Assembly (NCBI GenBank): GCA_965217585.1 | Contig: OZ244561.1 | Coordinates: 3,136,001 to 3,200,000 of the forward strand | Origin: Candidatus Latescibacterota bacterium | Lineage (GTDB): Bacteria > Latescibacterota > UBA2968 > UBA8231 | DNA length: 64,000 bases | Direction: 5' to 3' | Part shown: positions 1,434-39,017 of the stretch, piece after piece | Numbering within the stretch: the stretch's first letter is position 1 | Layout: each line of letters starts with the position of its first letter | Made by a program: the position numbers and the translations under genes | The notes under the pieces: model-generated | Seen by the model: only the letters and a program-made list of their open reading frames with translations | What the model was told of the DNA's origin: nothing | Database searches by the model: none

Positions 1434-1754
1434 ATGTATTCGATTGGCTTGGGCATGCGGCTGCGCCCCAATGCGTACGCCGAGTACAAACAGGCCCACG
1501 ACGACCTGTGGCCCGAAATCGCCGAGAGCATGACCGACAACGAGGTCAGCATGGCCATCTACCGCTTGGGCGAACACCTCGTCATCCACGCGGTGGCCCC
1601 TACCGAGGAAGACTGGCTCAAGAGCCGCCAAGTTCCCATTCTAGAAAAGTGGTACGACTACATGGCGCAGTTGTTGGAGACCGACGACGAGGGGCAGATC
1701 ATCTTCGAGGAGTTACCCGAAGCCTTTGCCTTCGGAATGTTCAAAGAAGCGTGA
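1434..1754 (+). CDS. rhaM: L-rhamnose mutarotase family protein
   Basis: 'LRPNAYAEYKQAHDDLWPE' and 'KWYDYMA' motifs; AAGGAG RBS before ATG 1434. Confidence 0.75.
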   Translation: MYSIGLGMRLRPNAYAEYKQAHDDLWPEIAESMTDNEVSMAIYRLGEHLVIHAVAPTEEDWLKSRQVPILEKWYDYMAQLLETDDEGQIIFEELPEAFAFGMFKEA

Positions 1755-1757
1755 ACC

Positions 1758-2561
1758 CTAGGCCGCGTCCACTGGGTTTTGCAGCCGGCCGATCTGGTCT
1801 ATTTCCACGATTACCTCGTCGCCGGCCGCGAGCCACACGGGCGGTTTGCGCGCAAAACCCACGCCCTGCGGGGTGCCGGTGAGGATGACTGTGCCTGGCA
1901 GCAAGGTCGTATCTTGGCTGAGGAACTCGATCAGTTCGGCGACCGTGAAGATCATGTCGCCGGTGGTGTGGTCCTGCATGATCGCGCCGTTGAGAATCGT
2001 GCGGATGCCGAGGGTTTGTGGGTCGGGAATTTCGTCGGCTGTGACCAGCACCGGCCCCAAAGGGCAGAAGGTGTCAAAGCCCTTGCCGCGAATCCACTGG
2101 CCGCCGCCGCCGTGGAGCTGCCACTTGCGGGCCGAGACGTCGTTGGCGCACGTGTATCCGAGTACGTAGCTGAGGGCGTCGGCCTGCGCCACGTTGCGGG
2201 CGGCCTTGCCGATCACCACTGCGAGCTCGCACTCGTAGTCAACTTCCGGCCCGCGGCGACAGCAGGCCGGCAGCAGGATCGGGTCGCCCGGGCCGCAGAC
2301 CGCGCTCGTGGGCTTGGCAAAGACTACGGGCTGCTCGGGTGGCTCGAGGCCAGATTCGGCTGCGTGTTCTCGGTAGTTTAGCCCGATGCAGAAAATGTTG
2401 GTTGGGGCGAGCGGGGCGAGCCGCCTTTTGACGGCCACTTGTTCGCCCATGGGCACTAGTTCTGCGAAGAGATCGCCGGTGAGGACGGAGGCTTGGCCCT
2501 CCTCGGCTTCGAGGCCCCAACGGACGGTGTCACCAGCGTCGATAAAGCGGATGATGCGCAT
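1758..2561 (-). CDS. Fumarylacetoacetate hydrolase family protein
   Basis: 'CIGLNYREH', 'DYECEL', 'NDVSAR', 'KGFDTFCPLGP', 'LTGTPQG' motifs; start taken at MRIIRF. Confidence 0.9.
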   Translation of the reverse strand: MRIIRFIDAGDTVRWGLEAEEGQASVLTGDLFAELVPMGEQVAVKRRLAPLAPTNIFCIGLNYREHAAESGLEPPEQPVVFAKPTSAVCGPGDPILLPACCRRGPEVDYECELAVVIGKAARNVAQADALSYVLGYTCANDVSARKWQLHGGGGQWIRGKGFDTFCPLGPVLVTADEIPDPQTLGIRTILNGAIMQDHTTGDMIFTVAELIEFLSQDTTLLPGTVILTGTPQGVGFARKPPVWLAAGDEVIVEIDQIGRLQNPVDAA

Positions 2562-2630
2562 GTCTTTCTCCTTTGTTTTTCCAGCACTTGCACAAACCTT
2601 AAGGCAGGGCTGGCAGCCCGTCAAATAACC

Positions 2631-2659
2631 TTGACGCTTGAGGTGGGGCCGCCTATTTT
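2631..2659 (+). promoter_or_regulatory. Putative sigma70 promoter of the BMC operon
   Basis: TTGACG (2631-2636), 17 bp spacer, TATTTT (2654-2659), about 40 bp upstream of the aldehyde dehydrogenase start. Confidence 0.55.
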
Positions 2660-2698
2660 CCCCTTCTTAAAATTAAACTCAACGCGAGGGTAAAGAGA

Positions 2699-4111
2699 GT
2701 GCCCCAAAACGTCAGCGAAGAACACGTACGCAAAATAGTCGAAGAAGTGGTGCAGCGCGTCGTCAGCGGCGGGGACGGCAGCGAGGGCGGGGACACTGGT
2801 GTCTTCGCGACGGTCGACGCGGCTGTCCAAGGCGCGACCCGCGCCCAGCAGCAGTTGGTGGCCTTGTCGCTAGAGGAGCGCAAAAAGATCGTCGAGGCCC
2901 TCCGGCAGACGGCGCACGTCCACGCCGAGGAGTTTTCGCGGCGGGCCTTGGCCGAGACGGGCATGGGGCGGTTGGAAGACAAGATCATCAAGCACCAAGT
3001 CGCGGCCGACACCACGCCCGGTGTCGAAGACCTAGAGGCCACTTCGTGGACCGGCGACCACGGGCTGACCGTAGTCGAAATGGCTCCCTACGGGGTCATC
3101 GGCGCGGTCACCCCATCTACACATCCCGTGCCGACGATGGTCAACAACGCCATTTGCATTGTCGCCGCGGGCAACTCGGTCGTCTTCAACGTACATCCGG
3201 CGGGCAGAAAGGTCTCCATGTTCGCGGTGGGCTTGATCAATCAAGCCATCGTCGCAGCCGGCGGGCCGGCCAACTTGGTGACCGCGGTTGAGACGCCGAC
3301 GATTGAGACGGCCAACGAATTGTTCAACCACCCGGATGTCCGCCTGCTGCTGGTAACCGGCGGGCCGGGCGTGGCCAAGGCCGCACTGGGTAGCCCCAAG
3401 AAGGCCATTGTCGCTGGTCCGGGCAATCCGCCCGCGGTGGTCGATGAAACCGCCGATTTGGCCAAGGCCGCGCGCGATATAATCGACGGGGGGGGCTTCG
3501 ACAACAACATTCTCTGCATCGGCGAGAAGCAGGTCTTTGCCGTCGCCTCCATTGCCGACGAGCTCAAGCGGCTGATGGTCCAGTACAATGCATATGAGCT
3601 CGATGCGCGGCAGATCGAGGCCCTCGCGCAGGTGGCCTTTGTCGAAGGGCCGGACGGGCATCTCGCAGCCAACCGCGAGCTGGTAGGACGCGACGCTGCC
3701 GTGCTGGGCGAGCGCATCGACCTCCGGCTCGACTCGTCGCTGCGCGTGCTCATTGGCGAAACCGACGCCAACCACGTTTTTGTGCGCGAGGAGCAGATGA
3801 TGCCCTTTCTGCCGATCGTGCGGGTTCCCAACATCGACCAAGCCATCCGCGAGGCCGTCATCTCCGAGCACGGCTACGGGCACACGGCCGTGATCCATTC
3901 GCGCAACATCGAAAACATGCACAACATGGCCCGCGCCGTAGATACCACTATTTTCGTCAAGAACGGCCCTTCCTACGCTGGGGTTGGCTTGGGCGGCGAG
4001 GGCTTTGGGACGTACTCCATCGCCGGGCCTACGGGCGAGGGCCTGACTTCACCGCGGACTTTTACCCGCCAGCGCCGCTGCGCCCTCGTCGACTACTTCC
4101 GCATCACCTGA
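2699..4111 (+). CDS. CoA-acylating aldehyde dehydrogenase (EutE/PduP family) with N-terminal encapsulation peptide
   Basis: 'ETGMG', 'TPGVEDL', 'PYGVIGAVTPSTHP', 'GPGNPP', 'FDNNILC', 'TGEGLT'; amphipathic N-terminus 'EEHVRKIVEEVVQRV'. Confidence 0.93.
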   Translation: MPQNVSEEHVRKIVEEVVQRVVSGGDGSEGGDTGVFATVDAAVQGATRAQQQLVALSLEERKKIVEALRQTAHVHAEEFSRRALAETGMGRLEDKIIKHQVAADTTPGVEDLEATSWTGDHGLTVVEMAPYGVIGAVTPSTHPVPTMVNNAICIVAAGNSVVFNVHPAGRKVSMFAVGLINQAIVAAGGPANLVTAVETPTIETANELFNHPDVRLLLVTGGPGVAKAALGSPKKAIVAGPGNPPAVVDETADLAKAARDIIDGGGFDNNILCIGEKQVFAVASIADELKRLMVQYNAYELDARQIEALAQVAFVEGPDGHLAANRELVGRDAAVLGERIDLRLDSSLRVLIGETDANHVFVREEQMMPFLPIVRVPNIDQAIREAVISEHGYGHTAVIHSRNIENMHNMARAVDTTIFVKNGPSYAGVGLGGEGFGTYSIAGPTGEGLTSPRTFTRQRRCALVDYFRIT

Positions 4112-4425
4112 TGCTCTTGGGCCAAGTCAAAGGGCATTTGGTTTCCACGGCCAAGGTCCCGAGCCTCAACGGCAAGAAGCTCTTAGTCGTCGAAATCGCG
4201 TCGGTGCGCGAGCATGGTCTGGTGCTGACGGGGCGGGATATGGTCTGCATCGATGCGGTGCAAGCGGGCAAGGGCGAGCTGGTGATTTTGGTGCAGGGCA
4301 GCTCGTCGCGGATCGCCCCGGACTTGGCCGACGTGCCAGCCGACGCGGTAATCGTCGGGATCGTCGATTCGCTACAGGCCATGGGCAAAGACTTCGACTG
4401 TCGGCAACTGAGCCGCGAAGGATAG
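4111..4425 (+). CDS. BMC vertex pentamer (EutN/CcmL family)
   Basis: 'G.V.STAK..L.G.KLLVV', 'DAVQAGKGE.V', 'GSSSR', 'DAVIVGIVD'. Confidence 0.92.
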   Translation: MLLGQVKGHLVSTAKVPSLNGKKLLVVEIASVREHGLVLTGRDMVCIDAVQAGKGELVILVQGSSSRIAPDLADVPADAVIVGIVDSLQAMGKDFDCRQLSREG

Positions 4426-4428
4426 GCG

Positions 4429-5109
4429 ATGGACGTTGCACCAGCGGCTGGATTGGACCGCAAGCAGATTGAGGCGTTGGTGCGCCGGGTGGTGTACGAT
4501 CACCTGCCCGACGCTCAGCTAGAGCAGGCACCCCCAGCCCCGAGGCTGGTAGTCAATATGTCCGCCCGCCACGTCCACCTCAATCAAGAGGCGCTGGACG
4601 CGCTTTTCGGCGCGGGTGCCGAGCTAACCGTGCAGAAGGCCCTGTATCAGGAAGGAGCTTTTGCCGCCGAGCAGACGGTGTCGGTTTTCGGCCCGCGCAA
4701 GCAGGTGATTCCCAATGTCCGCATCCTCGGCCCATTGCGCGAGTACAACCAAGTGGAGCTGGCCTTTACGGACGCCCGCTTTTTGGGCATTAACGCGCCG
4801 GTGCGGCTCAGCGGTAACATAGAGGGGACGCCGGGCTGCTACTTGGTGGGGCCGGCTGGGGGACTAGAGTTGGATCACGGGGTGATTCGGGCCGCCCGCC
4901 ATGTACATCTAAACCCGGCAGAGGCCGCGTACTATGGGGTCGGCCCGGGGGACTTGCTGCGGCTGGTAGTAGAAGGTGACCAGGGCGGGGTGCTGGAAGG
5001 GCTGATCTGTCGAGTCAGCGAGCGCGAGCGCCTAGAAGTTCACATCGACACGGACGAGGGCAATGCGATTGATTTGGTCCATGCCCGCAAGGTATATTTG
5101 GAGCGTTGA
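4429..5109 (+). CDS. pduL: Phosphate propanoyl/acyltransferase (PduL) with N-terminal encapsulation peptide
   Basis: 'SARHVHL', 'VRILGP.R', 'P.RLSG', 'RHVH', 'HIDTDEGNA'; N-terminal 'KQIEALVRRVV'. Confidence 0.92.
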   Translation: MDVAPAAGLDRKQIEALVRRVVYDHLPDAQLEQAPPAPRLVVNMSARHVHLNQEALDALFGAGAELTVQKALYQEGAFAAEQTVSVFGPRKQVIPNVRILGPLREYNQVELAFTDARFLGINAPVRLSGNIEGTPGCYLVGPAGGLELDHGVIRAARHVHLNPAEAAYYGVGPGDLLRLVVEGDQGGVLEGLICRVSERERLEVHIDTDEGNAIDLVHARKVYLER

Positions 5110-5146
5110 ACGCAAAAATCCGCACAATTACTTCAGGAGGTAAGGG

Positions 5147-5707
5147 ATGTCGGATGCAATAGGCATGGTAGAAACGGTGGGGCTGGTCGGGGTCGTCGAG
5201 GCCGGCGACGCCATGGCCAAGGCCGCCAGCGTACAGCTTTTGGGCTGGGACAGAGTCGGCTCCGGCTTGGTGACCGTGTTTTGCTCGGGCGATGTGGCGG
5301 CCGTCAAGTCGGCCGTGGATGCCGGCTCGGCCGCTGCGGCCAAGGTTGGGGAGGTGCATTCGGTGCATGTGATTCCCCGCCCGCACAGCGAGTTGACGGC
5401 CGTCGTGCCCGAGCGCGGCGACAGCGACGACAGCGATGGTCGCGTCCGCGCCTTGGGTCTCATTGAGACGAAGGGGGCCATCGGCGTGATCGAAGCAGCC
5501 GACGCCATGAGCAAGGCCGCCGATGTGGAGGTCGTCAAGCTCCAGGACATCGGTGGCGGGTACATTACCGTCATGGTCAGCGGCGACGTAGGCTCGGTGC
5601 AGGCTTCGGTCAGCGCTGGTGCCGAGGCGGCCGAGCGCGTGGGCGAGCTTGTGTCGCAGCACGTGATTCCCCGTCCCCACGACGATCTCGTCGCGTTGTA
5701 CTTGTAG
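5147..5707 (+). CDS. BMC shell protein with two tandem BMC-H-like domains
   Basis: Two repeats of A[IL]G[ML].ET.G...DAM.K...GDV..V..[AS]V.AG...VIPRPH. Confidence 0.92.
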   Translation: MSDAIGMVETVGLVGVVEAGDAMAKAASVQLLGWDRVGSGLVTVFCSGDVAAVKSAVDAGSAAAAKVGEVHSVHVIPRPHSELTAVVPERGDSDDSDGRVRALGLIETKGAIGVIEAADAMSKAADVEVVKLQDIGGGYITVMVSGDVGSVQASVSAGAEAAERVGELVSQHVIPRPHDDLVALYL

Positions 5708-5723
5708 GTAGAGGAGAGAAATA

Positions 5724-5987
5724 ATGAAAGCATTGGGTATGGTCGAGACCCGCGGTTTGGTCTGCGTCGTCGAAGCCCTCGACGCCATGTTGAAAACCGC
5801 CGACGTGAGCTATGCGGGCCAAAAGCGCGTGGGTAGTGGCCTAATTACCGTGCTAGTCGAAGGCGACGTAGCGGCCGTCAAAGCGGCCGTAGATGCGGGA
5901 GCGCAAGCCGCCCAGCGCATCGGCGAGCTGCGCAGCGTCCACGTGATTCCCCGCCCTACTGAGGGGCTGACAGACCACATTGGTTAG
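5724..5987 (+). CDS. BMC hexamer shell protein (BMC-H, PduA/EutM-like)
   Basis: 'ALGMVETRG', 'DAMLK', 'VGSG', '[10 protein letters not shown]', 'VIPRP'. Confidence 0.95.
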
Positions 5988-5991
5988 CTAA

Positions 5992-6441
5992 GTGGCCGAG
6001 GCTTTGCACATCGACGCCCCGGTAGTCACCGGCGATTTGCTCGGGCGCGAGCACAAGGGCGAGCGGACGCTCAGCGTGGCTCCCAGCGCCATCTTGACGC
6101 CGACGGCTTGGGATTACATCCGCCAGCACCGGTTGCAGCTAAGTCGCGGCGAGGCCGTTGCGGCAGCCGCCGACGGCGTTGCGGACGCGGGCCGTTGCGA
6201 GCATCCCGACCGCGCCTGCGGCTGCCAGCACGAGGAATTTGGCTCGGGGTACGTCGAGCCGTCGCGCTGCGGCGATTGCGCCGTCCACCAGCGCAAGAAG
6301 GCGGGGGATCCCGAGGCGAGTTGCGAGGGTTGCAACCGCTACAAGACGCTGTTGCAACAAATCGAGCAGGGCCAAGCCACCGATCCAGAAGCCTTAATTG
6401 AGCAGATCACCGAGCTAGTAATTCACCGGCTGGCAGACTAA
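5992..6441 (+). CDS. BMC-associated Cys-rich hypothetical protein with C-terminal encapsulation-like helix
   Basis: N-terminal 'ILTPTAWDYI' module; CxxxxxxCxC, CxxC, CxxC clusters; C-terminal 'EALIEQITELVIHRL'. Confidence 0.65.
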   Translation: MAEALHIDAPVVTGDLLGREHKGERTLSVAPSAILTPTAWDYIRQHRLQLSRGEAVAAAADGVADAGRCEHPDRACGCQHEEFGSGYVEPSRCGDCAVHQRKKAGDPEASCEGCNRYKTLLQQIEQGQATDPEALIEQITELVIHRLAD

Positions 6442-6444
6442 GCT

Positions 6445-7029
6445 ATGGCGGGCGACCCAGCAGTTGGCATGATCGAAGTGCAGGGCGTGGCCGCCGCCAT
6501 TGTGGGTGCGGATGCGGCCTGCAAGGCCGCGGATGTGCAGCTCGCGGGTTGGGCGTCAATCGGCGGCTATACCACGGCCTTTTTCACCGGGTCGATCAGC
6601 GATGTGGCCGCCGCGCTGCAAAGCGGCGAAGAAGCGGCCCGCGGCGTGGTAGAACACGTGGTGGCCGTGCCTCTAAACCAACCCGTTCCCGCCTGCTTCC
6701 ATTTCGTCGATTTTCCGGTCCGTGCCCACAGCGACTTTCCCGCCGGTGCCTTGGGGTTGGTCGAGACGCGCGGCTATGGGGCCCATATTCACACGAACGA
6801 TCAGATGGTCAAGACGGCTGCTGTCGAGGTAATCAACGTGCTGACGGTCCACGACCGCGTGGTGTGTTCGCTGGTCTTGGGAGACGTAGGAGCCGTCACC
6901 GAAGCCATCGCCGTCGCGCAAAAGCTGCTCGCGGGGTGCGAGCGCTTGCTAGGCACGGCACTGATTCCGCAGCCGCGACCAGAGGTTTTGGCTGCATACG
7001 CCGTGCCGATGGGAGGTGGCGGTGTCTAG
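6445..7029 (+). CDS. Divergent two-domain BMC shell protein
   Basis: 'AVGMIEVQG...DAACKAADV' and 'ALGLVETRG...DQMVKTAAV...GDVGAV...IPQPRP'. Confidence 0.85.
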   Translation: MAGDPAVGMIEVQGVAAAIVGADAACKAADVQLAGWASIGGYTTAFFTGSISDVAAALQSGEEAARGVVEHVVAVPLNQPVPACFHFVDFPVRAHSDFPAGALGLVETRGYGAHIHTNDQMVKTAAVEVINVLTVHDRVVCSLVLGDVGAVTEAIAVAQKLLAGCERLLGTALIPQPRPEVLAAYAVPMGGGGV

Positions 7030-8170
7030 CGGGGCGATCGGCATGTTGGAGACGCGCGGCATGGCGTCGCTGATGGCTTCCACCGACGCCATGCTCAAGG
7101 CCGCTGAGGTACACCTCTGTGGTCGGCACGGCATTGGCTCGGGTTGGCTCACCGTAGTAATTGCCGGCCAAGTAGCTGACGTGGAGGCGGCCATTCGCGT
7201 CGGCGAGGTCGAGGCGAACCGCACCGGCGAATTGATTGGCGCGCGAGTGGTGCCGAGGCCGGACACGCGCGCCATGGACGCCATGCCCCACGCAACTGGC
7301 CTCGGTGCCGAACAGGTACGGCCGCAGGCGATTGGCCTGTTGGAGACGCAGGGCCTGACGCCGCTAGTGGCTGGCGTCGATGCCATGCTCAAGGCCGCCC
7401 AAGTGGAGCTAGGGGGTTGGGCTTTCATCGGCGGCGCGCTGTGTCACGCGCCGATCTTTGGCGATGTGGCGGCTGTGCAGACGGCGCTAGAAGTCGGCCG
7501 ACAAGCAGCCGAGCGGATTGGCACTGTGTACGCGACCCTCGTTTTGCCCCAGCCCAGCGAGGGGCTAGGCCCTCTGCTGCCGCCCGCGCCACCGGTCACA
7601 CCGCGCTCCACGGGTGCCTTGGGCCTCATAGAGACCATTGGTTACTCCGCGGTCGTGGGCAGCGCCGACGCCATGCTCAAGGCCGCGGATGTCCAAATCG
7701 AGCGCTTGAGCATCGGCAGCGGCGGGCGGATTGCCGCGCTGGCTACCGGCCAGCTCGACGACGTGCAGGCCGCCCTGCGCGCTGGTGCTGAGGCGGCCAC
7801 GGGCTTGGGGCAGCTCGAAGCCTCGGCTGTAGTCTCTCGGCCCGATCCCGCGCTAGTCGCTCGTTTTGCCACTGCGGCCGAGGGCCTTGGGCCGGGTGCG
7901 CGGCAGGCTATGGGGCTGATTGAGACGCGCAGCACCGTGGCCTTGGTGCGGGCCGTCGATCGGATGCTCAAAGCCGCGGCCGTCGAATACGAAGGGGCCT
8001 ATAAGGTGGGGTACTACTTGACGGCCGCCGTCGTCCGCGGCGATGTCGGTGCCGTGCAGGTCGCCATAGAGGCGGGCCGGCAGGAGGCCGTCGCACACGG
8101 AGAACTGGTCTCGGCCTACGCCATTCCGCAGCCCTACAGCGGCCTCGAAGGCCGCCTGCCGCACGTTTAG
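7016..8170 (+). CDS. BMC shell protein with four fused BMC-H-like domains
   Basis: Four repeats starting AIGMLETRG / AIGLLETQG / ALGLIETIG / AMGLIETRS, each with D(A/R)MLKAA, in one 384-aa ORF. Confidence 0.9.
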   Translation: MAVSSGAIGMLETRGMASLMASTDAMLKAAEVHLCGRHGIGSGWLTVVIAGQVADVEAAIRVGEVEANRTGELIGARVVPRPDTRAMDAMPHATGLGAEQVRPQAIGLLETQGLTPLVAGVDAMLKAAQVELGGWAFIGGALCHAPIFGDVAAVQTALEVGRQAAERIGTVYATLVLPQPSEGLGPLLPPAPPVTPRSTGALGLIETIGYSAVVGSADAMLKAADVQIERLSIGSGGRIAALATGQLDDVQAALRAGAEAATGLGQLEASAVVSRPDPALVARFATAAEGLGPGARQAMGLIETRSTVALVRAVDRMLKAAAVEYEGAYKVGYYLTAAVVRGDVGAVQVAIEAGRQEAVAHGELVSAYAIPQPYSGLEGRLPHV

Positions 8171-8184
8171 CGAGGACGCGAAAA

Positions 8185-9357
8185 ATGATTCGGATTGACG
8201 ATGCAGTAATTACCGCTCAGACCTTGGAGGGCCGCCTGTCTGGCGAACGGCAGGTCGAGCTCGGCCCGGGGGCCAAGCTGACGCCCTCGGCGCAGGACTT
8301 TTTGCGCGCTCAAGGCGTTGAGGTTGTGCGTCGATCGGACGGGGAGCCAGCACCTGCCGCGCCCGCCGCGCCCCGGGTCCCGGCCGCTAACGTGGGGGGC
8401 CGCAAGGCATTTGCTGGCATCTTCTGCCCCAACGTCGTCCTTTTCGACCGCGAGAACGAGATCAACCACGCCGAGATGGAGCGCTACATCAACTGGCTGG
8501 TCGAGGTTGGGATCCACGGGCTGTATCCCAATGGCAGCACTGGCGAGTTCGCGCGCTTGTCGCGGGAGGAGCGCCAAGACGTGGTGCGGCTGGTCTGCGA
8601 GGTCAACGCGGGGCGCGTACCTGTACTGGCCGGAGCCAGCGAGGCCAACTTGCGCGACGTGCTCAAGATGGCTGAATACTACGCCTCGCTCGGCGTGGAT
8701 GCCATTGCGCTGATGCCCCCCTATTACTATGAGATTTCCACTGAAAGCCTCTTCGAGTACTTCGCTGAAATCGCCGAAGAATCGCCGCTGGACATCTTGC
8801 TATACAATATCCCGCGATTTACCCAAGAGCTGTCGATAGATCTGATGGAGCGACTCTTGCCCTACGAGCGGATCTTCGGCACCAAGGACTCCAGCCGCGA
8901 CCTGCCGCGGCTGCTCAACACCATGAATCGCTTGCGCCAACAGCGCCCCGAATACGTGGTAATGACCGGTTGCGAGGAGATCGTGTTCCCCTCGGTGCTC
9001 ATGGGCGCCAGTGGGGGCACCATCGCCACCTCGGGCATCGTCCCAGAGGTGATTGTCGAGCTTTATGAAAAGGCCAAAAGCGGCGACATTGAGCGGGCCC
9101 GCGAACTGCAATACCGCATCCTCGATCTCATCAACCTCATGCTCTTAGGCGTCAACTTCCCAGAGGGCTTCAAGACCGGCGTGGCGGCTCGTGGCTTTGA
9201 CGTAGGCCCAGCGCGGGCATCTACTACTGCCGCCGAGCAGGAGTACCTGCTCAAGCTAGAGGCCCAAATCAACTGCGTCCTCGCGGATATGGGCTATCCG
9301 GTGAGCGGCCCCCGCGCCTGCCCGACGACCAACCTGCCGCCGATCGTCGGCCGTTAG
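8185..9357 (+). CDS. DHDPS/class I aldolase family enzyme with extra N-terminal module and Pro/Ala linker
   Basis: 'PNGSTGE', 'YNIP', 'TKDSS' (Schiff-base Lys); about 70 aa N-terminal extension. Confidence 0.88.
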   Translation: MIRIDDAVITAQTLEGRLSGERQVELGPGAKLTPSAQDFLRAQGVEVVRRSDGEPAPAAPAAPRVPAANVGGRKAFAGIFCPNVVLFDRENEINHAEMERYINWLVEVGIHGLYPNGSTGEFARLSREERQDVVRLVCEVNAGRVPVLAGASEANLRDVLKMAEYYASLGVDAIALMPPYYYEISTESLFEYFAEIAEESPLDILLYNIPRFTQELSIDLMERLLPYERIFGTKDSSRDLPRLLNTMNRLRQQRPEYVVMTGCEEIVFPSVLMGASGGTIATSGIVPEVIVELYEKAKSGDIERARELQYRILDLINLMLLGVNFPEGFKTGVAARGFDVGPARASTTAAEQEYLLKLEAQINCVLADMGYPVSGPRACPTTNLPPIVGR

Positions 9358-10434
9358 ATGGCCCTTGCGGGCGCGCGTGTGTTGGTGGTCGGGGCCGGTA
9401 TCATTGGCCGCTCGACGGCCTACTTCCTCGCGCGGCAAGGCGCGAAGATCGTCCTGCTCGACGAGGGAATCCCCGCTGGCTCGCCCACGAGCCGGGCCTC
9501 TTTGGGCGTCCTCACCCACTGCAACGGCGGCGACAATCCCTACGCCCAGCTTTTCCGCGACGGTCACGCTCTGCACGCTCGGCTGGCCCGCGACTTAGAA
9601 GAAGATATAGACGCAGATGTGGGCTGGCGTCCCCTCGGCGGCATCGAGCTTTTTGCCGACGCATCCCAGATAGAGGAGGTCTGGCGCTTCAACCGCGCGC
9701 GCGGCTGTCGGGTCGAACGGCTCGACGAGCGGGCCTTGCGCGGTGCGGAGCCGGCGTTGGACGGCGGTTGCGAGGGTCTGTATTTTGCCGACGATCACCG
9801 GGTGGATCCCCTCAAGTTGGGCGCGGCGCTTTGGGCGGCGGCCGTACAGCGTGGCGCGTCCGCCGCTTGGGGTGAGCGCGTCTGGCGCATTGCCCAAGAG
9901 GGCGAGGCCGTCGAGGTCGCCACCAGTCGCGGAACCCACCGCGCTGACTTTGCGGTCTTGGCGGCTGGAGCGTGGACCGGCGGCTTGGCTGCGCAACTCG
10001 GTGCCCGCGTCGCGTTGCGCCCGGTGCGGGGCCAACAAGCGCGATTTGCCGGTGCCCCGCTGCGCCACCTAGTGAAGGTAAACGGACGCCACCTAATTCC
10101 AGACGGCGGCGAAACGGTCGTGGGATCGACGATGGAAGAGGTCGGCTTTCGGTTGGAAACGACCCGCGCGGCCGCGGCGGAGTTTGCCTCGGAGGTACGC
10201 TCCGCGCTGGGGAGGTGCTTGCCGCTGTCGCGCCAGCAGGCTGGTCTGCGGCCCAAGCCCCGAGGCGGGCGTCCGCTCATCGGCCCGCTGACGGATGCGC
10301 CGAGGGTTTTCGTGGCCTCTGGGCACTACAAAAACGGCGTCTTATTAGGCCCGATTACCGGCCAGATCGTCGCTCACTGGATCGCCGAGGGAACCCCAGG
10401 GCGCGACATGCGCCGCTTCGCACCCGAGCGTTGA
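9358..10434 (+). CDS. FAD-dependent amino-acid oxidase (glycine oxidase ThiO/DadA-like)
   Basis: GAGIIG dinucleotide motif, 'PVRGQ', 'GLRP', 'GHYKNG.LLGP.TG'. Confidence 0.85.
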   Translation: MALAGARVLVVGAGIIGRSTAYFLARQGAKIVLLDEGIPAGSPTSRASLGVLTHCNGGDNPYAQLFRDGHALHARLARDLEEDIDADVGWRPLGGIELFADASQIEEVWRFNRARGCRVERLDERALRGAEPALDGGCEGLYFADDHRVDPLKLGAALWAAAVQRGASAAWGERVWRIAQEGEAVEVATSRGTHRADFAVLAAGAWTGGLAAQLGARVALRPVRGQQARFAGAPLRHLVKVNGRHLIPDGGETVVGSTMEEVGFRLETTRAAAAEFASEVRSALGRCLPLSRQQAGLRPKPRGGRPLIGPLTDAPRVFVASGHYKNGVLLGPITGQIVAHWIAEGTPGRDMRRFAPER

Positions 10435-10467
10435 ATTCATTGCCACCTAACACAGTTGAGGTTAAAC

Positions 10468-11409
10468 ATGCCATTGCAAAAAGAAGACCTACTCGCCGCG
10501 CTAAACTCGGTTACCTCCATCCCGGTGGTCCCTTTTCGCGGCGGGCAAATCGACTACGAGGCCCACGCCAAGAACATCAACTACTTAATGGAGAACAATC
10601 ACTTAGACGGTGATCGGCCCCGGGTGATTGGTATCGCTGGCACTAGCTTGATCCACCACATTAGCGCGGACGAGCGAGTGCGGCTGTTGGGCTTTACCGG
10701 CGAGCAGATGGGGGGGCGCGGGGTGCTGATGTCCGGGATTGCTCCCAATCCAGTTGGGGATGCCGAGCGGTTGATCGAGCGGGAGGCCGCGCTGGAATAT
10801 CCCCCGGATGTCTATCTCGTCATGCCGCTTACTGGCGTGGCCAATCCAGAGGGCATTTTCGCGTACTACGTGGATTTTGCCGAGCGGTTGGGGCGTTCGT
10901 GCGGGGCCAAGTTGCTCTACTACCTGCGCAACCAAGCCGAGCGCGAGATAGCCGTGCGACTGATGAACGAATCCGAGCACTTCGTGGGGCTGAAGATCGG
11001 CACTACGGTCGAGGACGTTGAGCCGATTGTCGCCGACGTACAGGAGGGAGCTGCGCTGGTGATATGGGGTGTGGGGGACCGTTCGACTGGGCCGGCCGAG
11101 CGCGGCACCAAAGGGCATACGTCGGGGATCAACGTGGCCTTCGCCCGCGCTTCAGACGAGATCAACAACGCCCAGCGCCGAGGCGATTTTGCGACCTCGC
11201 AGCAGATCGAAAACCAGCTCGCGGCCCTAGAGGAAATTCGCTTCCGCAACGGCCGCATGTACAACTACTCGGCTGTGGTCGAGGCCATGCACTTGGGGGG
11301 ATTCAGCGATGTGGATGGCGGCGAGGGCGGTCCGTTCAATCCGCGGGTGTCGGCGGAAGTGGCCGAGGAAGTAGCCGCGGCCATAGCCGACATTGTGGAC
11401 TATCACTAG
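10468..11409 (+). CDS. Divergent DHDPS-family protein (keto-deoxy acid dehydratase/aldolase-like)
   Basis: 'IPVVPF..GQID', 'YYLRN', 'GLKIG', 'WGVGD', 'GHTSG'. Confidence 0.7.
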   Translation: MPLQKEDLLAALNSVTSIPVVPFRGGQIDYEAHAKNINYLMENNHLDGDRPRVIGIAGTSLIHHISADERVRLLGFTGEQMGGRGVLMSGIAPNPVGDAERLIEREAALEYPPDVYLVMPLTGVANPEGIFAYYVDFAERLGRSCGAKLLYYLRNQAEREIAVRLMNESEHFVGLKIGTTVEDVEPIVADVQEGAALVIWGVGDRSTGPAERGTKGHTSGINVAFARASDEINNAQRRGDFATSQQIENQLAALEEIRFRNGRMYNYSAVVEAMHLGGFSDVDGGEGGPFNPRVSAEVAEEVAAAIADIVDYH

Positions 11410-11708
11410 CCTTCGTCGCGCAGCCGCTCTAGATAGGCCGTCCATTCGACGGGGAGCAGGTGCTGCTTTTGGCTGTTGCAGTGCTTGCAGCAAGGCACCA
11501 CGTTGGACTTGGTGGTGCGGCCGCCGCGGATGAGCGGCACGACGTGGTCCATGGTTAGCTCATCGGGCGCAAACGACTGCTGGCAGTAGTGGCATTGGCC
11601 GGCGGCCCGTTTGCGCTTCCACCACTGGGAGCGGCGCAGCATCTTGGCCTTGTTCTTTTCTCGGGCAACGTGTTCGGTGTCGGCTGGGACGAAGTATGTG
11701 TTTTCCAT
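11406..11708 (-). CDS. Small HNH endonuclease family protein
   Basis: 'CHYC...TMDHVVP..RGG....NVVPCCKHCN..K'. Confidence 0.88.
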   Translation of the reverse strand: MENTYFVPADTEHVAREKNKAKMLRRSQWWKRKRAAGQCHYCQQSFAPDELTMDHVVPLIRGGRTTKSNVVPCCKHCNSQKQHLLPVEWTAYLERLRDEG

Positions 11709-11878
11709 GCGAAAGCAAGATAGCGCAGAATGGGCGCAGGACAAATGAACCTTAGCGAAGCCGATACCGGGGCTAAGCTCATAGAAGGATATTCGCCGCA
11801 TGACGAAATACCAGCTTTATATTGCCGAAGTGGGAGAACCTGACCAGAAAGGTGAGGATACCTGAGAGAAGTTGATAT

Positions 11879-12820
11879 ATGACAGACAATGCAAACAAGA
11901 AAATACTAGACCGGGATAAAGCAGCAAACCTCGGAGAAATGATCACAGAGCCACTTGATAGCCTACAAGTCTTAGTAAATTACGGCACTAATCTTGTCCT
12001 CCGATGCTACTATTATGGTTCCAATAAGTCCCTCAAAGACGTCGTAGCATTATTTTCGCTGTTCAAAAATGCCCTCTCGATGGCTGACGCTATCGAAGTC
12101 ATGATGAGACAAGGAGTAATTCGTCCCAGCCAACTGCAACTTCGGTCATTGTTCGAAGTGTCTGTCACGCTTCAGTGGGTCCTGCAGGAATCGGGCGATG
12201 AGCGTGCTAGGGCATATCACGTTGCCAATCTCCGAAGACAACGTCTCTCGGCTCGCCGCGACCTTCCTGGCACAGAAGAGAATGAGGCTTTCCAATACTT
12301 TTGGGATACAGTAGGAGATAGAACCCCCTCGCCGGAGAGGGTGAAGGAAGTACGTGCCCAAATCGCCAATTTGGACAAAGAGCTGTCTGGACCTTCCTTA
12401 TGCGATCTCAATGAAAAATTTGAAACTTTTTATCAAAAGAACGAACGTGAGGAGGATTGGTACAAAATACTCGGTGTACGATCATTCTGGAAGATCGCCA
12501 AGGATATCGGTCGTACTGCGGAGTATGCCAAGATTTACACTTCTGGTTCCGAAGTCATGCACGGCTCTACGTACAGCGGTCAATTAGCTTTTGATGACTC
12601 AGAAATAATCATAGATCTGCTGAGATCGCCTAGAGAAATAGGCTACTCGCTGAGGCTAGCTATGGCGCTGACACTCAAGATGACACGGTCAACGCTTGAT
12701 TACTACAGGCCTGCTGAGGTGGAGAATTTGAAACGGAAGTACCGTGAAGATTGGGCTTCTCCTTTGAGGAGGATACCCGACATCAGGGCAGAAGAATTCA
12801 CGGTCATTTTAGATAGATAG
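11879..12820 (+). CDS. Hypothetical protein (DUF5677/HEPN-like)
   Basis: AT-richer ORF; 'LRSLFE' helix and 'Y...SEVMH' motif. Confidence 0.55.
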   Translation: MTDNANKKILDRDKAANLGEMITEPLDSLQVLVNYGTNLVLRCYYYGSNKSLKDVVALFSLFKNALSMADAIEVMMRQGVIRPSQLQLRSLFEVSVTLQWVLQESGDERARAYHVANLRRQRLSARRDLPGTEENEAFQYFWDTVGDRTPSPERVKEVRAQIANLDKELSGPSLCDLNEKFETFYQKNEREEDWYKILGVRSFWKIAKDIGRTAEYAKIYTSGSEVMHGSTYSGQLAFDDSEIIIDLLRSPREIGYSLRLAMALTLKMTRSTLDYYRPAEVENLKRKYREDWASPLRRIPDIRAEEFTVILDR

Positions 12821-12850
12821 GCTCTCGTCTAGCTATATAGCACCTGTCGG

Positions 12851-13156
12851 TCAGACGGGTTCATAACGCTGGACGCTGATCTCATTTGCGCGGGCGCGCA
12901 TCTGCGAGGCGTCATACCAAGCCTGCATCCTCAACAGCATGTCCATGCCTACGCCAAATGCCTTCTCTATACGTAGTGCCATCTCCGGTGATAGCGCGGC
13001 GTTGCCATTCAGCAAGTCCGAAAGCGTTGCCCGCCGAACTCCCAGAATCTCGGCTGCTCTCGTCACGTTCAGGCCCAACTCCTCGATGACTTCCGTGCGA
13101 ATAAAGTCGCCTGGATGCGAAGGGGTCATGTTCACTTTGATGCCGTCGGTAGCCAT
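12851..13156 (-). CDS. higA: HigA-family addiction module antitoxin
   Basis: 'HPGDFI', HTH, 'SPEMALRIEKAFG', 'RMQAWYD'; start overlaps the toxin stop (TAATG). Confidence 0.9.
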   Translation of the reverse strand: MATDGIKVNMTPSHPGDFIRTEVIEELGLNVTRAAEILGVRRATLSDLLNGNAALSPEMALRIEKAFGVGMDMLLRMQAWYDASQMRARANEISVQRYEPV

Positions 13157-37137: not shown

Positions 37138-37920
37138 TCAAGCTCTACAAGTTGGGACGGTTTCGCCCTCCCCTCGGTATGCCAACATATCCTCGTAGCG
37201 CAGCCCCGTGCCGCCGAAAATATCCAGCGCTGCTCCCACCGTAAAATCCAATTTCCCCTGGCCGAGCCGGCGGATAATCTCGATGTCCGCAGTGCTGCTC
37301 ACGCCGCCGGCGTAAGTCGTTGGAATCGGCGCGATCTCGCCCAAGAGTGCGACGAGTTCGGCATCAACTCCCTGCTGTTTGCCCTCGACCCCGGTGGCGT
37401 GAATGAGGAATTCGCTGCAAGACTCGGCGAGGAGCGCCAAGTTGTCCGCGTTGATTGCAAAGTTCGTGGCCTTTTGCCAGCGGTCGGTCATCACCACGTA
37501 GCGCCCATCGCGTTTGCTGCAACTGAGGTCTAAGACCAGCCGCTCGCGCCCCACCGCAGCCACCATTTGCGCCAGTCGGCTGCGGTGAAGCTGGCCGTCA
37601 CTAAAGACATAGGAAGTGACGATCACCTGCGCGGCACCGCGCCTGAGCCAAGCCGCGGCGTTGTCGGGGCGGATGCCGCCGCCGACCTGCAACCCCCCGG
37701 GGAAGGCGGCCAACGCCTGTGCGGCCGCGTCCTCGTTGCCTGGGCCGAGCATGATGACGTGGCCGCCGAAGAGCTGGTCGCGGCCATAGCGCGCCGCAAA
37801 GTAAGCCGGAGGATGCGGGGCGATGAAGTGGGTTTGGGGGGCGCTGCCGTCGCGTAGGCTGGTGCCGACGATCTGCTTAACTCGCCCCTCGTGCAGGTCG
37901 ATACAGGGCCGGAAGCGCAT
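37138..37920 (-). CDS. hisA: ProFAR isomerase, His6/eukaryotic-type HisA
   Basis: 'FRPCIDLH.G.VKQIVG', 'GGHVIMLG', 'LQVGGGI', 'EFLIHA..VEG', 'TYAGG'. Confidence 0.9.
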   Translation of the reverse strand: MRFRPCIDLHEGRVKQIVGTSLRDGSAPQTHFIAPHPPAYFAARYGRDQLFGGHVIMLGPGNEDAAAQALAAFPGGLQVGGGIRPDNAAAWLRRGAAQVIVTSYVFSDGQLHRSRLAQMVAAVGRERLVLDLSCSKRDGRYVVMTDRWQKATNFAINADNLALLAESCSEFLIHATGVEGKQQGVDAELVALLGEIAPIPTTYAGGVSSTADIEIIRRLGQGKLDFTVGAALDIFGGTGLRYEDMLAYRGEGETVPTCRA

Positions 37921-39017
37921 CAGCGGTCGCAGCGGTACTCTGCGAGTGCGTCCTCGTCGAGGGTGACGCCGAGGCCCGGGCCGGCTGGCGGGAGGATGTA
38001 CCCGTCGGCTATGGGCAGCTTTTCGCGGATGACGTCGCCGCGGTGATAGACGCAGCCGTTCACGTCGCTGGCGTAGCCCAAGTTGGGCATGGCAAAGGCG
38101 AGATGGGCTTGGGCGGCGGTGCCGATCCCCAGCTCGGGCATGCTGCCGATGATACAGGGCAGACGCGCTGCTTCGGCAATGGCGAAGATGCGCGCGGCCG
38201 CCCCCAAACCGCCAGCTTCCGATACGTACACGTTGAAGACATCGACGGCTTGGTGGCGGACGCAGTTGAGGGCGTCGGCCGGCGTCCAAACGCTCTCGTC
38301 GGCCATGATGGGCAGCGAGACGCGCTCGCGGACAAAGCGCAATCCCTCTAAGTCGTCGGCGGCTAAGGGCTGCTCGACCAGTTCTAAGTCAAAGTCTGCG
38401 ATTGCCTCGATGTGGCGCACGGCTTCCTTGGCTGAGGACCAGCCCATGTTGGCATCTACGCGCAGGACGACTTCGCTGCCGATTGCGTTGCGCACGGCTG
38501 CGAGCACGGCTAGGTCGGCGCGAATGTCCCGCCCGATCTTGGCCTTGAGGGTCTTGTACCCTTGGGCCACTAGATTCTGGGCTTGGGTGGCGATGGCTGT
38601 GGGGTCGCCCATGGACAGCGAATGACTCAGCAACACGCGGTCGCGGACTAGGCCACCTAGCAGTTGGTAAACGGGCACGTCGCAGGCTTTGCCGACCAAG
38701 TCGTAGAGGGCCATTTCAATGCCAGCCTTGGCCGGGAAGGAGCGGTGCAAGGCTTGATTCATGCGGTCGGCGATCTCGCGGATGCGGCGCGGGTCCAAGC
38801 CGCAGAGCATATCGGCGAGCAGCCCGTTGATGGCCTCGCTTTCCCCGCGTCCGCGGCGGTCCCAGATGCTGGAGGCTTCGCCGATGCCGGTGAGTCCGGC
38901 GTCGGTGTGGATCAAGACGACGGCGTTTTCAGAGGCTTGGTGGGTGCCGAGGCTGCTTTGAAAAGGTTGCGGCCTTGGCACGCGCACGGGTATGGCTTCG
39001 ACGTGGGTAATTTTCAT
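37920..39017 (-). CDS. Mandelate racemase/muconate lactonizing enzyme family protein
   Basis: 'K.KIG', 'RVDAN', 'EQP', 'DES', 'GPGLGV'. Confidence 0.9.
   Translation of the reverse strand: MKITHVEAIPVRVPRPQPFQSSLGTHQASENAVVLIHTDAGLTGIGEASSIWDRRGRGESEAINGLLADMLCGLDPRRIREIADRMNQALHRSFPAKAGIEMALYDLVGKACDVPVYQLLGGLVRDRVLLSHSLSMGDPTAIATQAQNLVAQGYKTLKAKIGRDIRADLAVLAAVRNAIGSEVVLRVDANMGWSSAKEAVRHIEAIADFDLELVEQPLAADDLEGLRFVRERVSLPIMADESVWTPADALNCVRHQAVDVFNVYVSEAGGLGAAARIFAIAEAARLPCIIGSMPELGIGTAAQAHLAFAMPNLGYASDVNGCVYHRGDVIREKLPIADGYILPPAGPGLGVTLDEDALAEYRCDR

Follow-up and report, generated by a model that had tools for sequence, protein, structure and literature searches.

Where does a bacterial microcompartment (BMC) obtain its aldehyde if its operon encodes members of the DHDPS family rather than a lyase or a class II aldolase? 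The question is raised by a locus in a 64,000-nucleotide stretch (hereafter the window) of contig OZ244561.1, assembly GCA_965217585.1, positions 3,136,001 to 3,200,000. The locus is a real BMC operon of an uncultured Latescibacterota bacterium: according to the list of open reading frames (ORFs) and to Pfam and NCBIfam scans, eleven ORFs abut or overlap on the + strand between 2699 and 11409. An earlier note, made from the DNA letters alone, had proposed a DHDPS-family enzyme as a BMC-linked aldolase, and this proposal gained support from the linkage of the gene to shell genes, from targeting-type extensions, from catalytic motifs, and from the sugar-acid context of its relatives. We give about an even chance to the reading that this enzyme, termed DHDPS1, belongs to a module that extends a compartment of the lactaldehyde type, like that of Planctomycetes and Verrucomicrobia (PVM-like), to non-phosphorylated keto-deoxy sugar acids, and that no separate organelle is involved. 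The genes of the operon, and the one divergent from it, are as follows.

2699..4111, + strand: CoA-acylating aldehyde dehydrogenase (AldDH); NCBIfam PRK15398, 653 bits against a cut-off of 403
4111..4425, + strand: BMC-P pentamer (vertex); Pfam EutN_CcmL, 84.1 bits
4429..5109, + strand: PduL phosphotransacylase; Pfam PTAC, 222.7 bits, and NCBIfam PRK15070, 225 bits against a cut-off of 209
5147..5707, + strand: two-domain BMC protein, BMC2a; Pfam BMC in two stretches, 177.7 bits
5724..5987, + strand: single-domain BMC-H; Pfam BMC, 94.2 bits
5992..6441, + strand: Cys149, a 149-aa Cys-rich protein; no Pfam family
6445..7029, + strand: two-domain BMC protein, BMC2b; Pfam BMC in two stretches, 109.7 bits
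7016..8170, + strand: four-domain BMC protein, BMC4, 384 aa; Pfam BMC in four stretches, 255.5 bits
8185..9357, + strand: DHDPS1, 390 aa; Pfam DHDPS, 199.5 bits (cut-off 22.1), residues 76-362
9358..10434, + strand: DAO-family FAD oxidoreductase (DAO); Pfam DAO, 193.7 bits
10456..11409, + strand: DHDPS2, a divergent DHDPS-family protein; Pfam DHDPS, 39.7 bits against a cut-off of 22.1
1758..2624, - strand: FAH-family hydrolase, divergent from the operon; Pfam FAA_hydrolase, 257.9 bits

All three kinds of metabolosome shell protein (BMC-H, multi-domain BMC, and BMC-P) are encoded, with PF00936 in four proteins and PF03319 in one. The nine BMC domains on four polypeptides and the single pentamer gene counted earlier were found again by the Pfam scan, and the other parts named in the earlier note were confirmed as well. 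AldDH and PduL form the expected pair of acylating aldehyde dehydrogenase and phosphotransacylase (PRK15398, 653 bits; PTAC, 222.7 bits), with putative encapsulation peptides. The helices suspected on both proteins are evident in their sequences: in AldDH, an amphipathic N-terminal helix of the encapsulation type at residues ~6-23 is followed by a Gly- or Pro-rich linker and the Pfam domain from residue 37, and in PduL, a similar helix and linker precede a Pfam domain that begins at residue 42. The best solved relatives of AldDH are 5jfl and 4c3s, both named aldehyde dehydrogenases by their depositors (438-445 bits). Among all eleven operon proteins, no Pfam match to a B12 lyase, glycyl-radical enzyme, class II aldolase, acetate kinase, or alcohol dehydrogenase was found. 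The reported lack of a class II aldolase and an acyl kinase therefore holds for the operon but not for the genome, in which there are one PF00596 gene and one acetate kinase gene.

The operon is conserved in its order. With DHDPS1 as bait, 39 loci were obtained from species-representative genomes (identity 68-93%) of Latescibacterota, some of them labelled Gemmatimonadota, and one Planctomycetota. The search for the same gene order that had been suggested gave a positive result, since the full order from AldDH to DHDPS2 is present in 28 of the 39; four further loci end at contig edges and agree as far as their sequence reaches, and in seven the trio BMC2b-BMC4-DHDPS1 stands alone. With BMC4 as bait, 66 loci were obtained, and 64 of them could be evaluated (one had no qualifying match and one was too short) after matches with less than 40% query cover, and DAO matches with less than 40% identity, were dropped. 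DHDPS1 is the gene directly after BMC4 in 61 of these 64 loci, so the conservation of the aldolase in homologous loci, a point that the earlier note had left to be checked, is clear. A sister lineage has this trio apart from the core: AldDH (57-59% identical) is at another locus in 5/5 of its genomes searched, and in one closed chromosome (G001) the distance is ~2.2 Mb. The adjacency of BMC2b, BMC4, and DHDPS1 is kept in all three locus layouts that have BMC4. Two of the 28 full-order loci (L003 and L025, from related genomes) are split by an insert of ~4.3 kb that follows the Cys149 gene and precedes BMC2b.

DHDPS1 belongs to the DHDPS/NAL family of class I aldolases, as it combines a PF00701 match over the full barrel with the Lys, the Tyr, and the GxTGE motif of the family. 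Its GSTGE and YNIP motifs and the Lys in FGTKDSS align with those of KDG aldolase (4uxd) and YagE (2v8z), and also with 4xky and 3eb2; we take the Lys to be the Schiff-base residue, and the Tyr of YNIP and GxTGE to be catalytic. In these features it is like KDG aldolase, YagE/YjhH, and N-acetylneuraminate lyase. It differs from them in that it reaches only ~125-128 bits with solved members and carries a 75-residue N-terminal extension, and we know of no KDG aldolase, YagE/YjhH, or N-acetylneuraminate lyase with such an extension or with shell genes as neighbours. Human 4-hydroxy-2-oxoglutarate aldolase is also related (98.8 bits). Among NCBIfam models, DHDPS1 scores higher on aldolase/synthase models than on the dehydratase models of its family; it lies under all equivalog cut-offs (DapA, 156 vs 206; NanA, 163.9 vs 281 and 133.4 vs 382; archaeal KDG aldolase, 127.1 vs 390; KdgD, 100.5 vs 374). 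When homologues of the core were searched for, only close orthologues were present among the best 120, with automatic labels such as '2-dehydro-3-deoxy-D-pentonate aldolase'.

These features fit the cleavage of a 2-keto-3-deoxy sugar acid by DHDPS1 into pyruvate and an aldehyde. The reaction suggested in the earlier note, from 2-keto-3-deoxy-L-rhamnonate to lactaldehyde, is a reasonable guess for such an enzyme, and an economical one because the same AldDH/PduL core serves an aldolase of the fuculose/rhamnulose-phosphate type; glycolaldehyde from keto-deoxy-pentonates is the main alternative product. The surroundings of distant homologues also concern sugar acids. In one locus of family f14, the order is an enolase-superfamily acid-sugar dehydratase, an SDR, the DHDPS1 homologue, and a BMC-T gene, and in another the homologue stands between GlcE/GlcD-like plus GlcF-like genes and a Zn-ADH gene plus a GH9 gene. 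The window's own genome has 39 enolase-superfamily (MR_MLE) matches at E<=1e-10, which point to a large predicted repertoire of acid-sugar dehydratases. One MR_MLE match is within the window, at 37920-39017 on the - strand.

How DHDPS1 might reach the compartment is suggested by its N-terminus. The protein consists of a 50-aa N-terminal domain, a Pro/Ala-rich linker, and the barrel, and its first 50 residues are conserved in all orthologues. Residues 2-49 are homologous to the N-terminal domain of Cys149 (35% identity, pairwise E 5e-9); the shared domain, encoded at 8185-8337 in DHDPS1 and at 6001-6153 in Cys149, has a beta-alpha-beta-alpha-beta order. When 1.84 billion representatives were searched with a profile of the domain, 542 protein clusters matched, and proteins of 215-255 aa are frequent in this set. 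Among 60 sampled clusters, 12 match LacAB_rpiB weakly, 4 match DHDPS, and most others match no family. DHDPS1 and Cys149 are the only carriers in the window's genome, and DHDPS1 is the only one in five sister-lineage genomes. Nine orthologues of Cys149 share invariant C78, C93, C96, C111, and C114, which form a CxxC...CxxC metal-knuckle region, and all keep at the C-terminus an encapsulation-type helix in the style of the AldDH and PduL helices. Cys149 is found only in operons that also have DAO. Its AlphaFold2 model is confident for residues 1-50 only (pLDDT 79-90), and a Protein Atlas look-up gave a best score of 0.84, to be taken as a lead only, with a EutQ-fragment cluster at 0.78.

Another kind of extension is seen in families f13 and f14, whose DHDPS1 homologues (~50% identity) have no N-domain but a variable linker and then a C-terminal encapsulation-type helix; a two-domain BMC gene follows immediately after each. 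The same enzyme clade is therefore tied to shell genes in three locus layouts and by two kinds of extension. Taken together, the linkage to shell genes, its survival in the split locus, the N-domain, and the tails of the distant homologues make DHDPS1 very probably microcompartment cargo. A complex prediction for BMC4, BMC2b, and the N-domain of DHDPS1 gave no answer (score 0.00) and speaks neither for nor against binding.

The shell partners of DHDPS1 are unusual as well. BMC4 is one unbroken frame in 13 orthologues, in which each domain has its own conserved pore-loop sequence, and its AlphaFold2 model has a mean pLDDT of 87.7 and a pTM of 0.86. A search for relatives gave 556 at E<=1e-10. 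In the best 120, the length is 285-404 aa, and only close orthologues and no informative names were found among them. The literature, searched by exact phrase, yielded no description of a four-domain BMC protein. The stop of BMC2b and the start of BMC4 overlap by 14 nt in the window (6445-8170), and the conserved loop sequences of the six BMC domains of the two proteins are all different. As an idea only, the four domains of BMC4 and the two of BMC2b could make up one asymmetric six-domain tile, or pseudohexamer, and the pair may provide a pore for the acid substrate or for pyruvate.

The remainder of the genome (7.32 Mb, one contig, 94.6% complete) bears on whether DHDPS1 defines a compartment of its own. 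Two further BMC-H genes and a BMC-P triplet are present elsewhere, and the single PF00596 class II aldolase gene lies two genes from one of these satellite BMC-H genes. This aldolase, whose best solved relatives are an enzyme named 'Aldolase' by its depositors and fuculose-phosphate aldolases, has a C-terminal amphipathic helix of the encapsulation type behind a variable linker in 8/8 loci from 7 genomes. Acetate kinase is single-copy and 1.5 Mb from the operon. In the sister lineage, the main locus contains PduL, a 475-aa protein, BMC-H, BMC-P, AldDH, two BMC-P, the class II aldolase, and acetate kinase. The claim that the operon represents a distinct metabolosome type without a class II aldolase thus cannot be kept: the genome has a helix-tailed class II aldolase near a satellite BMC-H, and in the sister lineage class II aldolase and acetate kinase are part of the AldDH/PduL locus with DHDPS1 in the satellite. 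The 475-aa protein (L047:6723-8150), encoded between PduL and BMC-H, is conserved and has no Pfam family. A TnpB-like gene with OrfB_IS605 and Cas12f1-like TNB domains (L049:10165-11385) lies ~1.3 kb from the satellite BMC-P triplet, with a LytB gene between.

A survey of 168 genomes of the phylum gave a similar picture. BMC domains occur in 152, an orthologue of the class II aldolase (E<=1e-40) in 144, and DHDPS1 (E<=1e-80) in 85, and 78 of these 85 also have the class II aldolase orthologue. In 79 DHDPS1 genomes (families f1, f3, and f4), the protein is of the window's type, with a match that starts at the N-terminus except in four that are partial or cut at contig ends; the other six (f13 and f14) have matches of ~50% identity that begin only around query residue 55-76. 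Family f3 has members with and without the enzyme. Where DHDPS1 is present, eight BMC-domain matches were found in 16 of 17 genomes and two in the seventeenth, in which the DHDPS1 match is partial and at a contig end; where it is absent, each of five genomes has two. The difference between eight and two equals the six domains of BMC2b and BMC4. Since the f3 genomes are kin, this association is a pattern and no statistic. A compartment with DHDPS1 as the only aldolase was sought in five DHDPS1 genomes without the class II orthologue; two of them have a PF00596 gene and three are fragmented metagenome-assembled genomes (MAGs), so the candidate was dropped as not decisive.

DAO and DHDPS2, the last two genes of the operon, are variable accessories. 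In the 64 evaluable BMC4-anchored loci, BMC4 is followed by DHDPS1, DAO, and DHDPS2 in 39, by DHDPS1 alone in 15, by DHDPS1 and DAO in six (one being too short to judge for DHDPS2), by DHDPS1 and DHDPS2 in one, by DAO and DHDPS2 in two, and by DAO alone in one. DAO reaches 174 bits with the ThiO model TIGR02352 (cut-off 251), its best solved relatives are glycine oxidases (106 bits), and it has no evident targeting extension. It is the least conserved enzyme of the operon: in divergent loci its identity is 44-70%, as against 70-81% for DHDPS1. In five sister-lineage genomes, no orthologue of DAO was found (only paralogues of <=34% identity), nor one of DHDPS2. The best solved relative of DHDPS2 is 3e96 (40.5 bits); its Lys aligns with that of DHDPS chain 2ehh, presumably the Schiff-base Lys, and after a Gly-rich linker the protein ends in a C-terminal amphipathic helix that is conserved in eight orthologues. 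Among homologous operons, L124, L125, L134, and L073-L075 lack DHDPS1, and in two of these genomes no orthologue of the class II aldolase was found either (E<=1e-40).

The compartment and its module can be compared with known systems. PVM and PVM-like loci, as described by Axen et al. (2014; PMC4207490) and Sutter et al. (2021; PMC8217296), belong to Planctomycetes and Verrucomicrobia, which degrade L-fucose and L-rhamnose via lactaldehyde by means of a class II aldolase. As far as these accounts go, the likeness includes acylating AldDH, PduL, multiple BMC-P genes, a class II aldolase as the aldehyde source, and polysaccharide-degrading hosts; the content of the sister-lineage main locus matches what both papers give for PVM-type loci. 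In that lineage the class II aldolase is in the locus itself, and only there is acetate kinase in the locus too. In the window's genome, the PF00596 signature enzyme is present in the satellite and not in the operon, and the operon adds DHDPS1, DAO, DHDPS2, Cys149, and the pair of BMC4 and BMC2b. A Pfam search of the operon proteins found no acetate kinase, DeoR regulator, or gene of the lactate/malate-dehydrogenase family such as PVM loci carry.

The closest parallel to the module is the 'EUT module' of Sutter et al. (2021; PMC8217296), satellites with EutABC and a EutL-type shell protein for HO, SPU3, and SPU6 compartments. According to what is described there, a signature enzyme and its own multi-domain shell protein move as a unit and widen the substrates of the main compartment. 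The trio BMC2b-BMC4-DHDPS1 likewise stands as a satellite in one lineage and has joined the core genes in another, but with a cofactor-free class I aldolase rather than a B12 lyase, and with four- and two-domain shell partners rather than EutL. Axen et al. (2014; PMC4207490) also describe 'SPU-like' loci from Latescibacteria single cells, with AldDH, PduL, class II aldolase, acetate kinase, PduS, and an RpiB-like protein. The phylum is the same, and the N-domain of DHDPS1 recurs in LacAB_rpiB-matching proteins just as RpiB-like proteins are listed for those loci; however, the loci are described there without a DHDPS-family enzyme, and in the window's genome the N-domain is confined to DHDPS1 and Cys149. 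No match to the DeoC-type aldolase (PF01791) or RpiB (PF02502) of SPU loci was found among the operon proteins, the part of the genome searched for these two families.

The literature that could be searched by term gave no link of a DHDPS/NAL-family enzyme to a microcompartment, and among papers that name both keto-3-deoxy aldolases and microcompartments, those consulted did not connect the two. The DHDPS family is not mentioned in the main texts of Axen et al. (2014) and Sutter et al. (2021); the locus may yet be present in their supplementary tables, with a MIC, MUF, FRAG, or PVM-like label or among types of unknown function. What appears to be new here is a predicted class I aldolase module, with unusual shell proteins and a candidate targeting domain, on a PVM-like aldolase-fed metabolosome.

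The proposed mechanism can be potentially described as follows. The core would be acylating AldDH and PduL, brought by their encapsulation helices within a shell of BMC-H, BMC-P, and multi-domain BMC proteins, to which the three-gene module BMC2b-BMC4-DHDPS1 would have been fused in the window's lineage. DHDPS1 would be pulled into or onto the compartment via its N-terminal domain, and its distant relatives via the C-terminal helix. There, a non-phosphorylated 2-keto-3-deoxy sugar acid would be bound to its Lys as a Schiff base and cleaved to pyruvate and an aldehyde; the simplest substrate would be 2-keto-3-deoxy-L-fuconate or -L-rhamnonate, giving L-lactaldehyde, and the alternative a keto-deoxy-pentonate, giving glycolaldehyde. 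The aldehyde would be converted to acyl-CoA and then to acyl-phosphate, from which the single acetate kinase of the genome could make ATP. The same compartment would also be fed lactaldehyde by the satellite-encoded, encapsulation-tagged class II aldolase of the fuculose/rhamnulose-phosphate type. In the simplest history, the compartment with the class II aldolase would be the older one, the shell-shell-DHDPS1 module would be a later gain, and its fusion with the core genes would have followed in the window's lineage. A joint reading that takes in more, with a DHDPS class I aldolase as a new signature enzyme in a portable module, an asymmetric six-domain gating tile, and an N-domain that replaces the encapsulation peptide, seems possible but doubtful to us.

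Several observations weigh against the reading of DHDPS1 as a module enzyme for keto-deoxy sugar acids. DHDPS1 has no close characterised relative: its best solved relatives, KDG aldolase, DHDPS, and YagE, all score alike, and since the equivalog cut-offs are missed too, the family is clear but the substrate is not assignable. The DHDPS family also includes dehydratases and deaminases. No sugar-acid dehydratase gene adjoins the operon in the window. The nearest pair of enolase-superfamily and SDR genes (L067:3172-5092) was considered as a pathway partner and rejected, as it is ~12 kb upstream with housekeeping genes between; given the 39 MR_MLE matches in the genome, even this closeness may be chance. 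The roles of DAO and DHDPS2 are left unexplained by the sugar-acid scheme, and a Pfam search of the operon proteins found no alcohol dehydrogenase in the locus to recycle NAD+.

Other such observations concern the cargo role. That the N-domain draws DHDPS1 to the compartment is inferred from the company in which the domain is found, and a Foldseek comparison of the Cys149 model with the PDB gave no match at E<=0.001, leaving the domain without a known fold relative. DHDPS1 is gone from homologous operons in 3/64 loci and in one more genome, with DAO, alone or with DHDPS2, directly after BMC4. This loss speaks against a distinct DHDPS-based type as the earlier note had it, and it makes DHDPS1 dispensable for the compartment; family f1 likewise includes genomes that lack DHDPS1 yet show ten or eleven BMC-domain matches, and in three of them that were inspected the same operon has DAO, alone or with DHDPS2, right behind BMC4. 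Finally, public data give a hint of expression. Among 21 public runs that contain part of the stretch, six are RNA libraries, and four metatranscriptome runs from two studies have contigs 90-99% alike to the operon, which are therefore from relatives of the window's organism. When 1700-11900 was divided into 30 bins, all were covered in three metatranscriptome runs and 29/30 in the fourth, and single contigs span 2756-7263, 2792-7191, and 2699-6383. Because DNA can occur in RNA libraries, and the contigs show neither strand nor ends, they are compatible with transcription of the operon but prove neither transcription nor a single transcript.

Three other explanations have been considered. A self-standing new metabolosome, with the DHDPS-type aldolase as its sole signature enzyme and the class II aldolase as an unrelated cytosolic enzyme, would agree with the absence of any other aldehyde-forming lyase or aldolase family among the operon proteins and with DHDPS1 being the best conserved non-core enzyme beside the shell genes (61/64 loci). 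Seven of the 85 DHDPS1 genomes also have no class II aldolase orthologue at E<=1e-40, and three of the seven (83, 84, and 94% complete) yielded no PF00596 gene at all; these three are fragmented MAGs, however, and 5/8 of their genus have the orthologue. A cytosolic class II aldolase would be difficult to reconcile with a C-terminal helix kept in 8/8 loci, with a gene two genes from BMC-H in the window's genome and within the AldDH/PduL/BMC-P locus of the sister lineage, and with its presence in 78/85 DHDPS1 genomes, so we consider this explanation quite improbable.

The remaining two start from DAO. In bacteria, the genes of D-hydroxyproline dehydrogenase and pyrroline-hydroxy-carboxylate deaminase are likewise a DAO-family gene beside a DHDPS-family gene, and by analogy DAO would oxidise a D-amino or imino acid, and DHDPS2 or DHDPS1 would act as a deaminase/dehydratase that yields alpha-ketoglutarate semialdehyde or a similar product for AldDH. 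DAO indeed abuts DHDPS1 and precedes DHDPS2, the two persist without DHDPS1 in 2/64 loci and DAO alone in one, and the metal knuckles of Cys149, which are confined to DAO operons and missing from the DAO-less sister lineage, would fit an electron acceptor. Yet the 94.6% complete genome has no match to PF05544 (proline-racemase/4-hydroxyproline-epimerase), so that a hydroxyproline cluster is not recognised; DAO is nearest to glycine oxidases, the NCBIfam models matched by DAO, DHDPS1, and DHDPS2 include none from the hydroxyproline pathway, and the scores of DHDPS1 favour aldolase/synthase over dehydratase models. As five sister genomes keep the shell-DHDPS1 trio with no DAO or DHDPS2 orthologue found, this route appears unlikely. 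Alternatively, DAO itself could be the aldehyde source, making glyoxylate from glycine, or formaldehyde or another aldehyde from an N-methyl or amino compound, with the DHDPS enzymes joining or splitting pyruvate and an aldehyde in a reaction of the 4-hydroxy-2-oxoglutarate type. The glycine oxidases at ~106 bits, the human 4-hydroxy-2-oxoglutarate aldolase at 98.8 bits, the operons in which DAO is the sole non-core enzyme, and the glycolate-oxidase-like genes beside distant DHDPS homologues are all in keeping with this scheme. It is very unlikely nonetheless, with a DAO that has no targeting extension, stays under the ThiO equivalog cut-off (174 vs 251 bits), and is the least conserved enzyme (44-70% identity vs 70-81% for DHDPS1), and to our knowledge an oxalyl-CoA or formyl-CoA route through this AldDH would be unprecedented.

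If DHDPS1 is cargo, as in the PVM-like reading, BMCs would also serve the non-phosphorylative sugar-acid branch of deoxy-sugar catabolism, and a cofactor-free class I aldolase would be included among encapsulated aldehyde-forming enzymes. The locus illustrates how the substrate range of a compartment may be widened through a portable enzyme-plus-shell module. For engineering, it offers a small folded domain as a candidate targeting device and, in BMC4, a shell protein from which asymmetric pores may be built. Uncultured Latescibacterota, the hosts, are abundant, and sponge metagenomes are the origin of several of the MAG records and RNA runs; the pathway may thus play a part in how fucose- and rhamnose-rich polysaccharides are turned over in sponge habitats.

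Upstream of AldDH, a FAH-family match is present in 26/39 DHDPS1-anchored loci (two being fragments only). The best NCBIfam model of the FAH-family neighbour is 2,4-didehydro-3-deoxy-L-rhamnonate hydrolase (223.8 bits, under the cut-off of 500), an enzyme of the non-phosphorylative L-rhamnonate route. This conserved neighbour agrees with a sugar-acid substrate for DHDPS1 and possibly belongs to a cytosolic route for the same sugar acids. At the other end, an HNH endonuclease gene (11406-11801, - strand) is convergent with the operon and overlaps the stop of DHDPS2 by 4 nt. It is kept at the operon end in nearly all full-length loci, including those without DHDPS1 or DHDPS2, and therefore it is a fixed neighbour and no stray mobile gene. 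Just downstream of the locus, at 12001-13000, the G+C content is 0.49 as compared with ~0.63 in the operon; a DUF5677 gene and an XRE-type regulator are located there, and this stretch may be a small foreign island.

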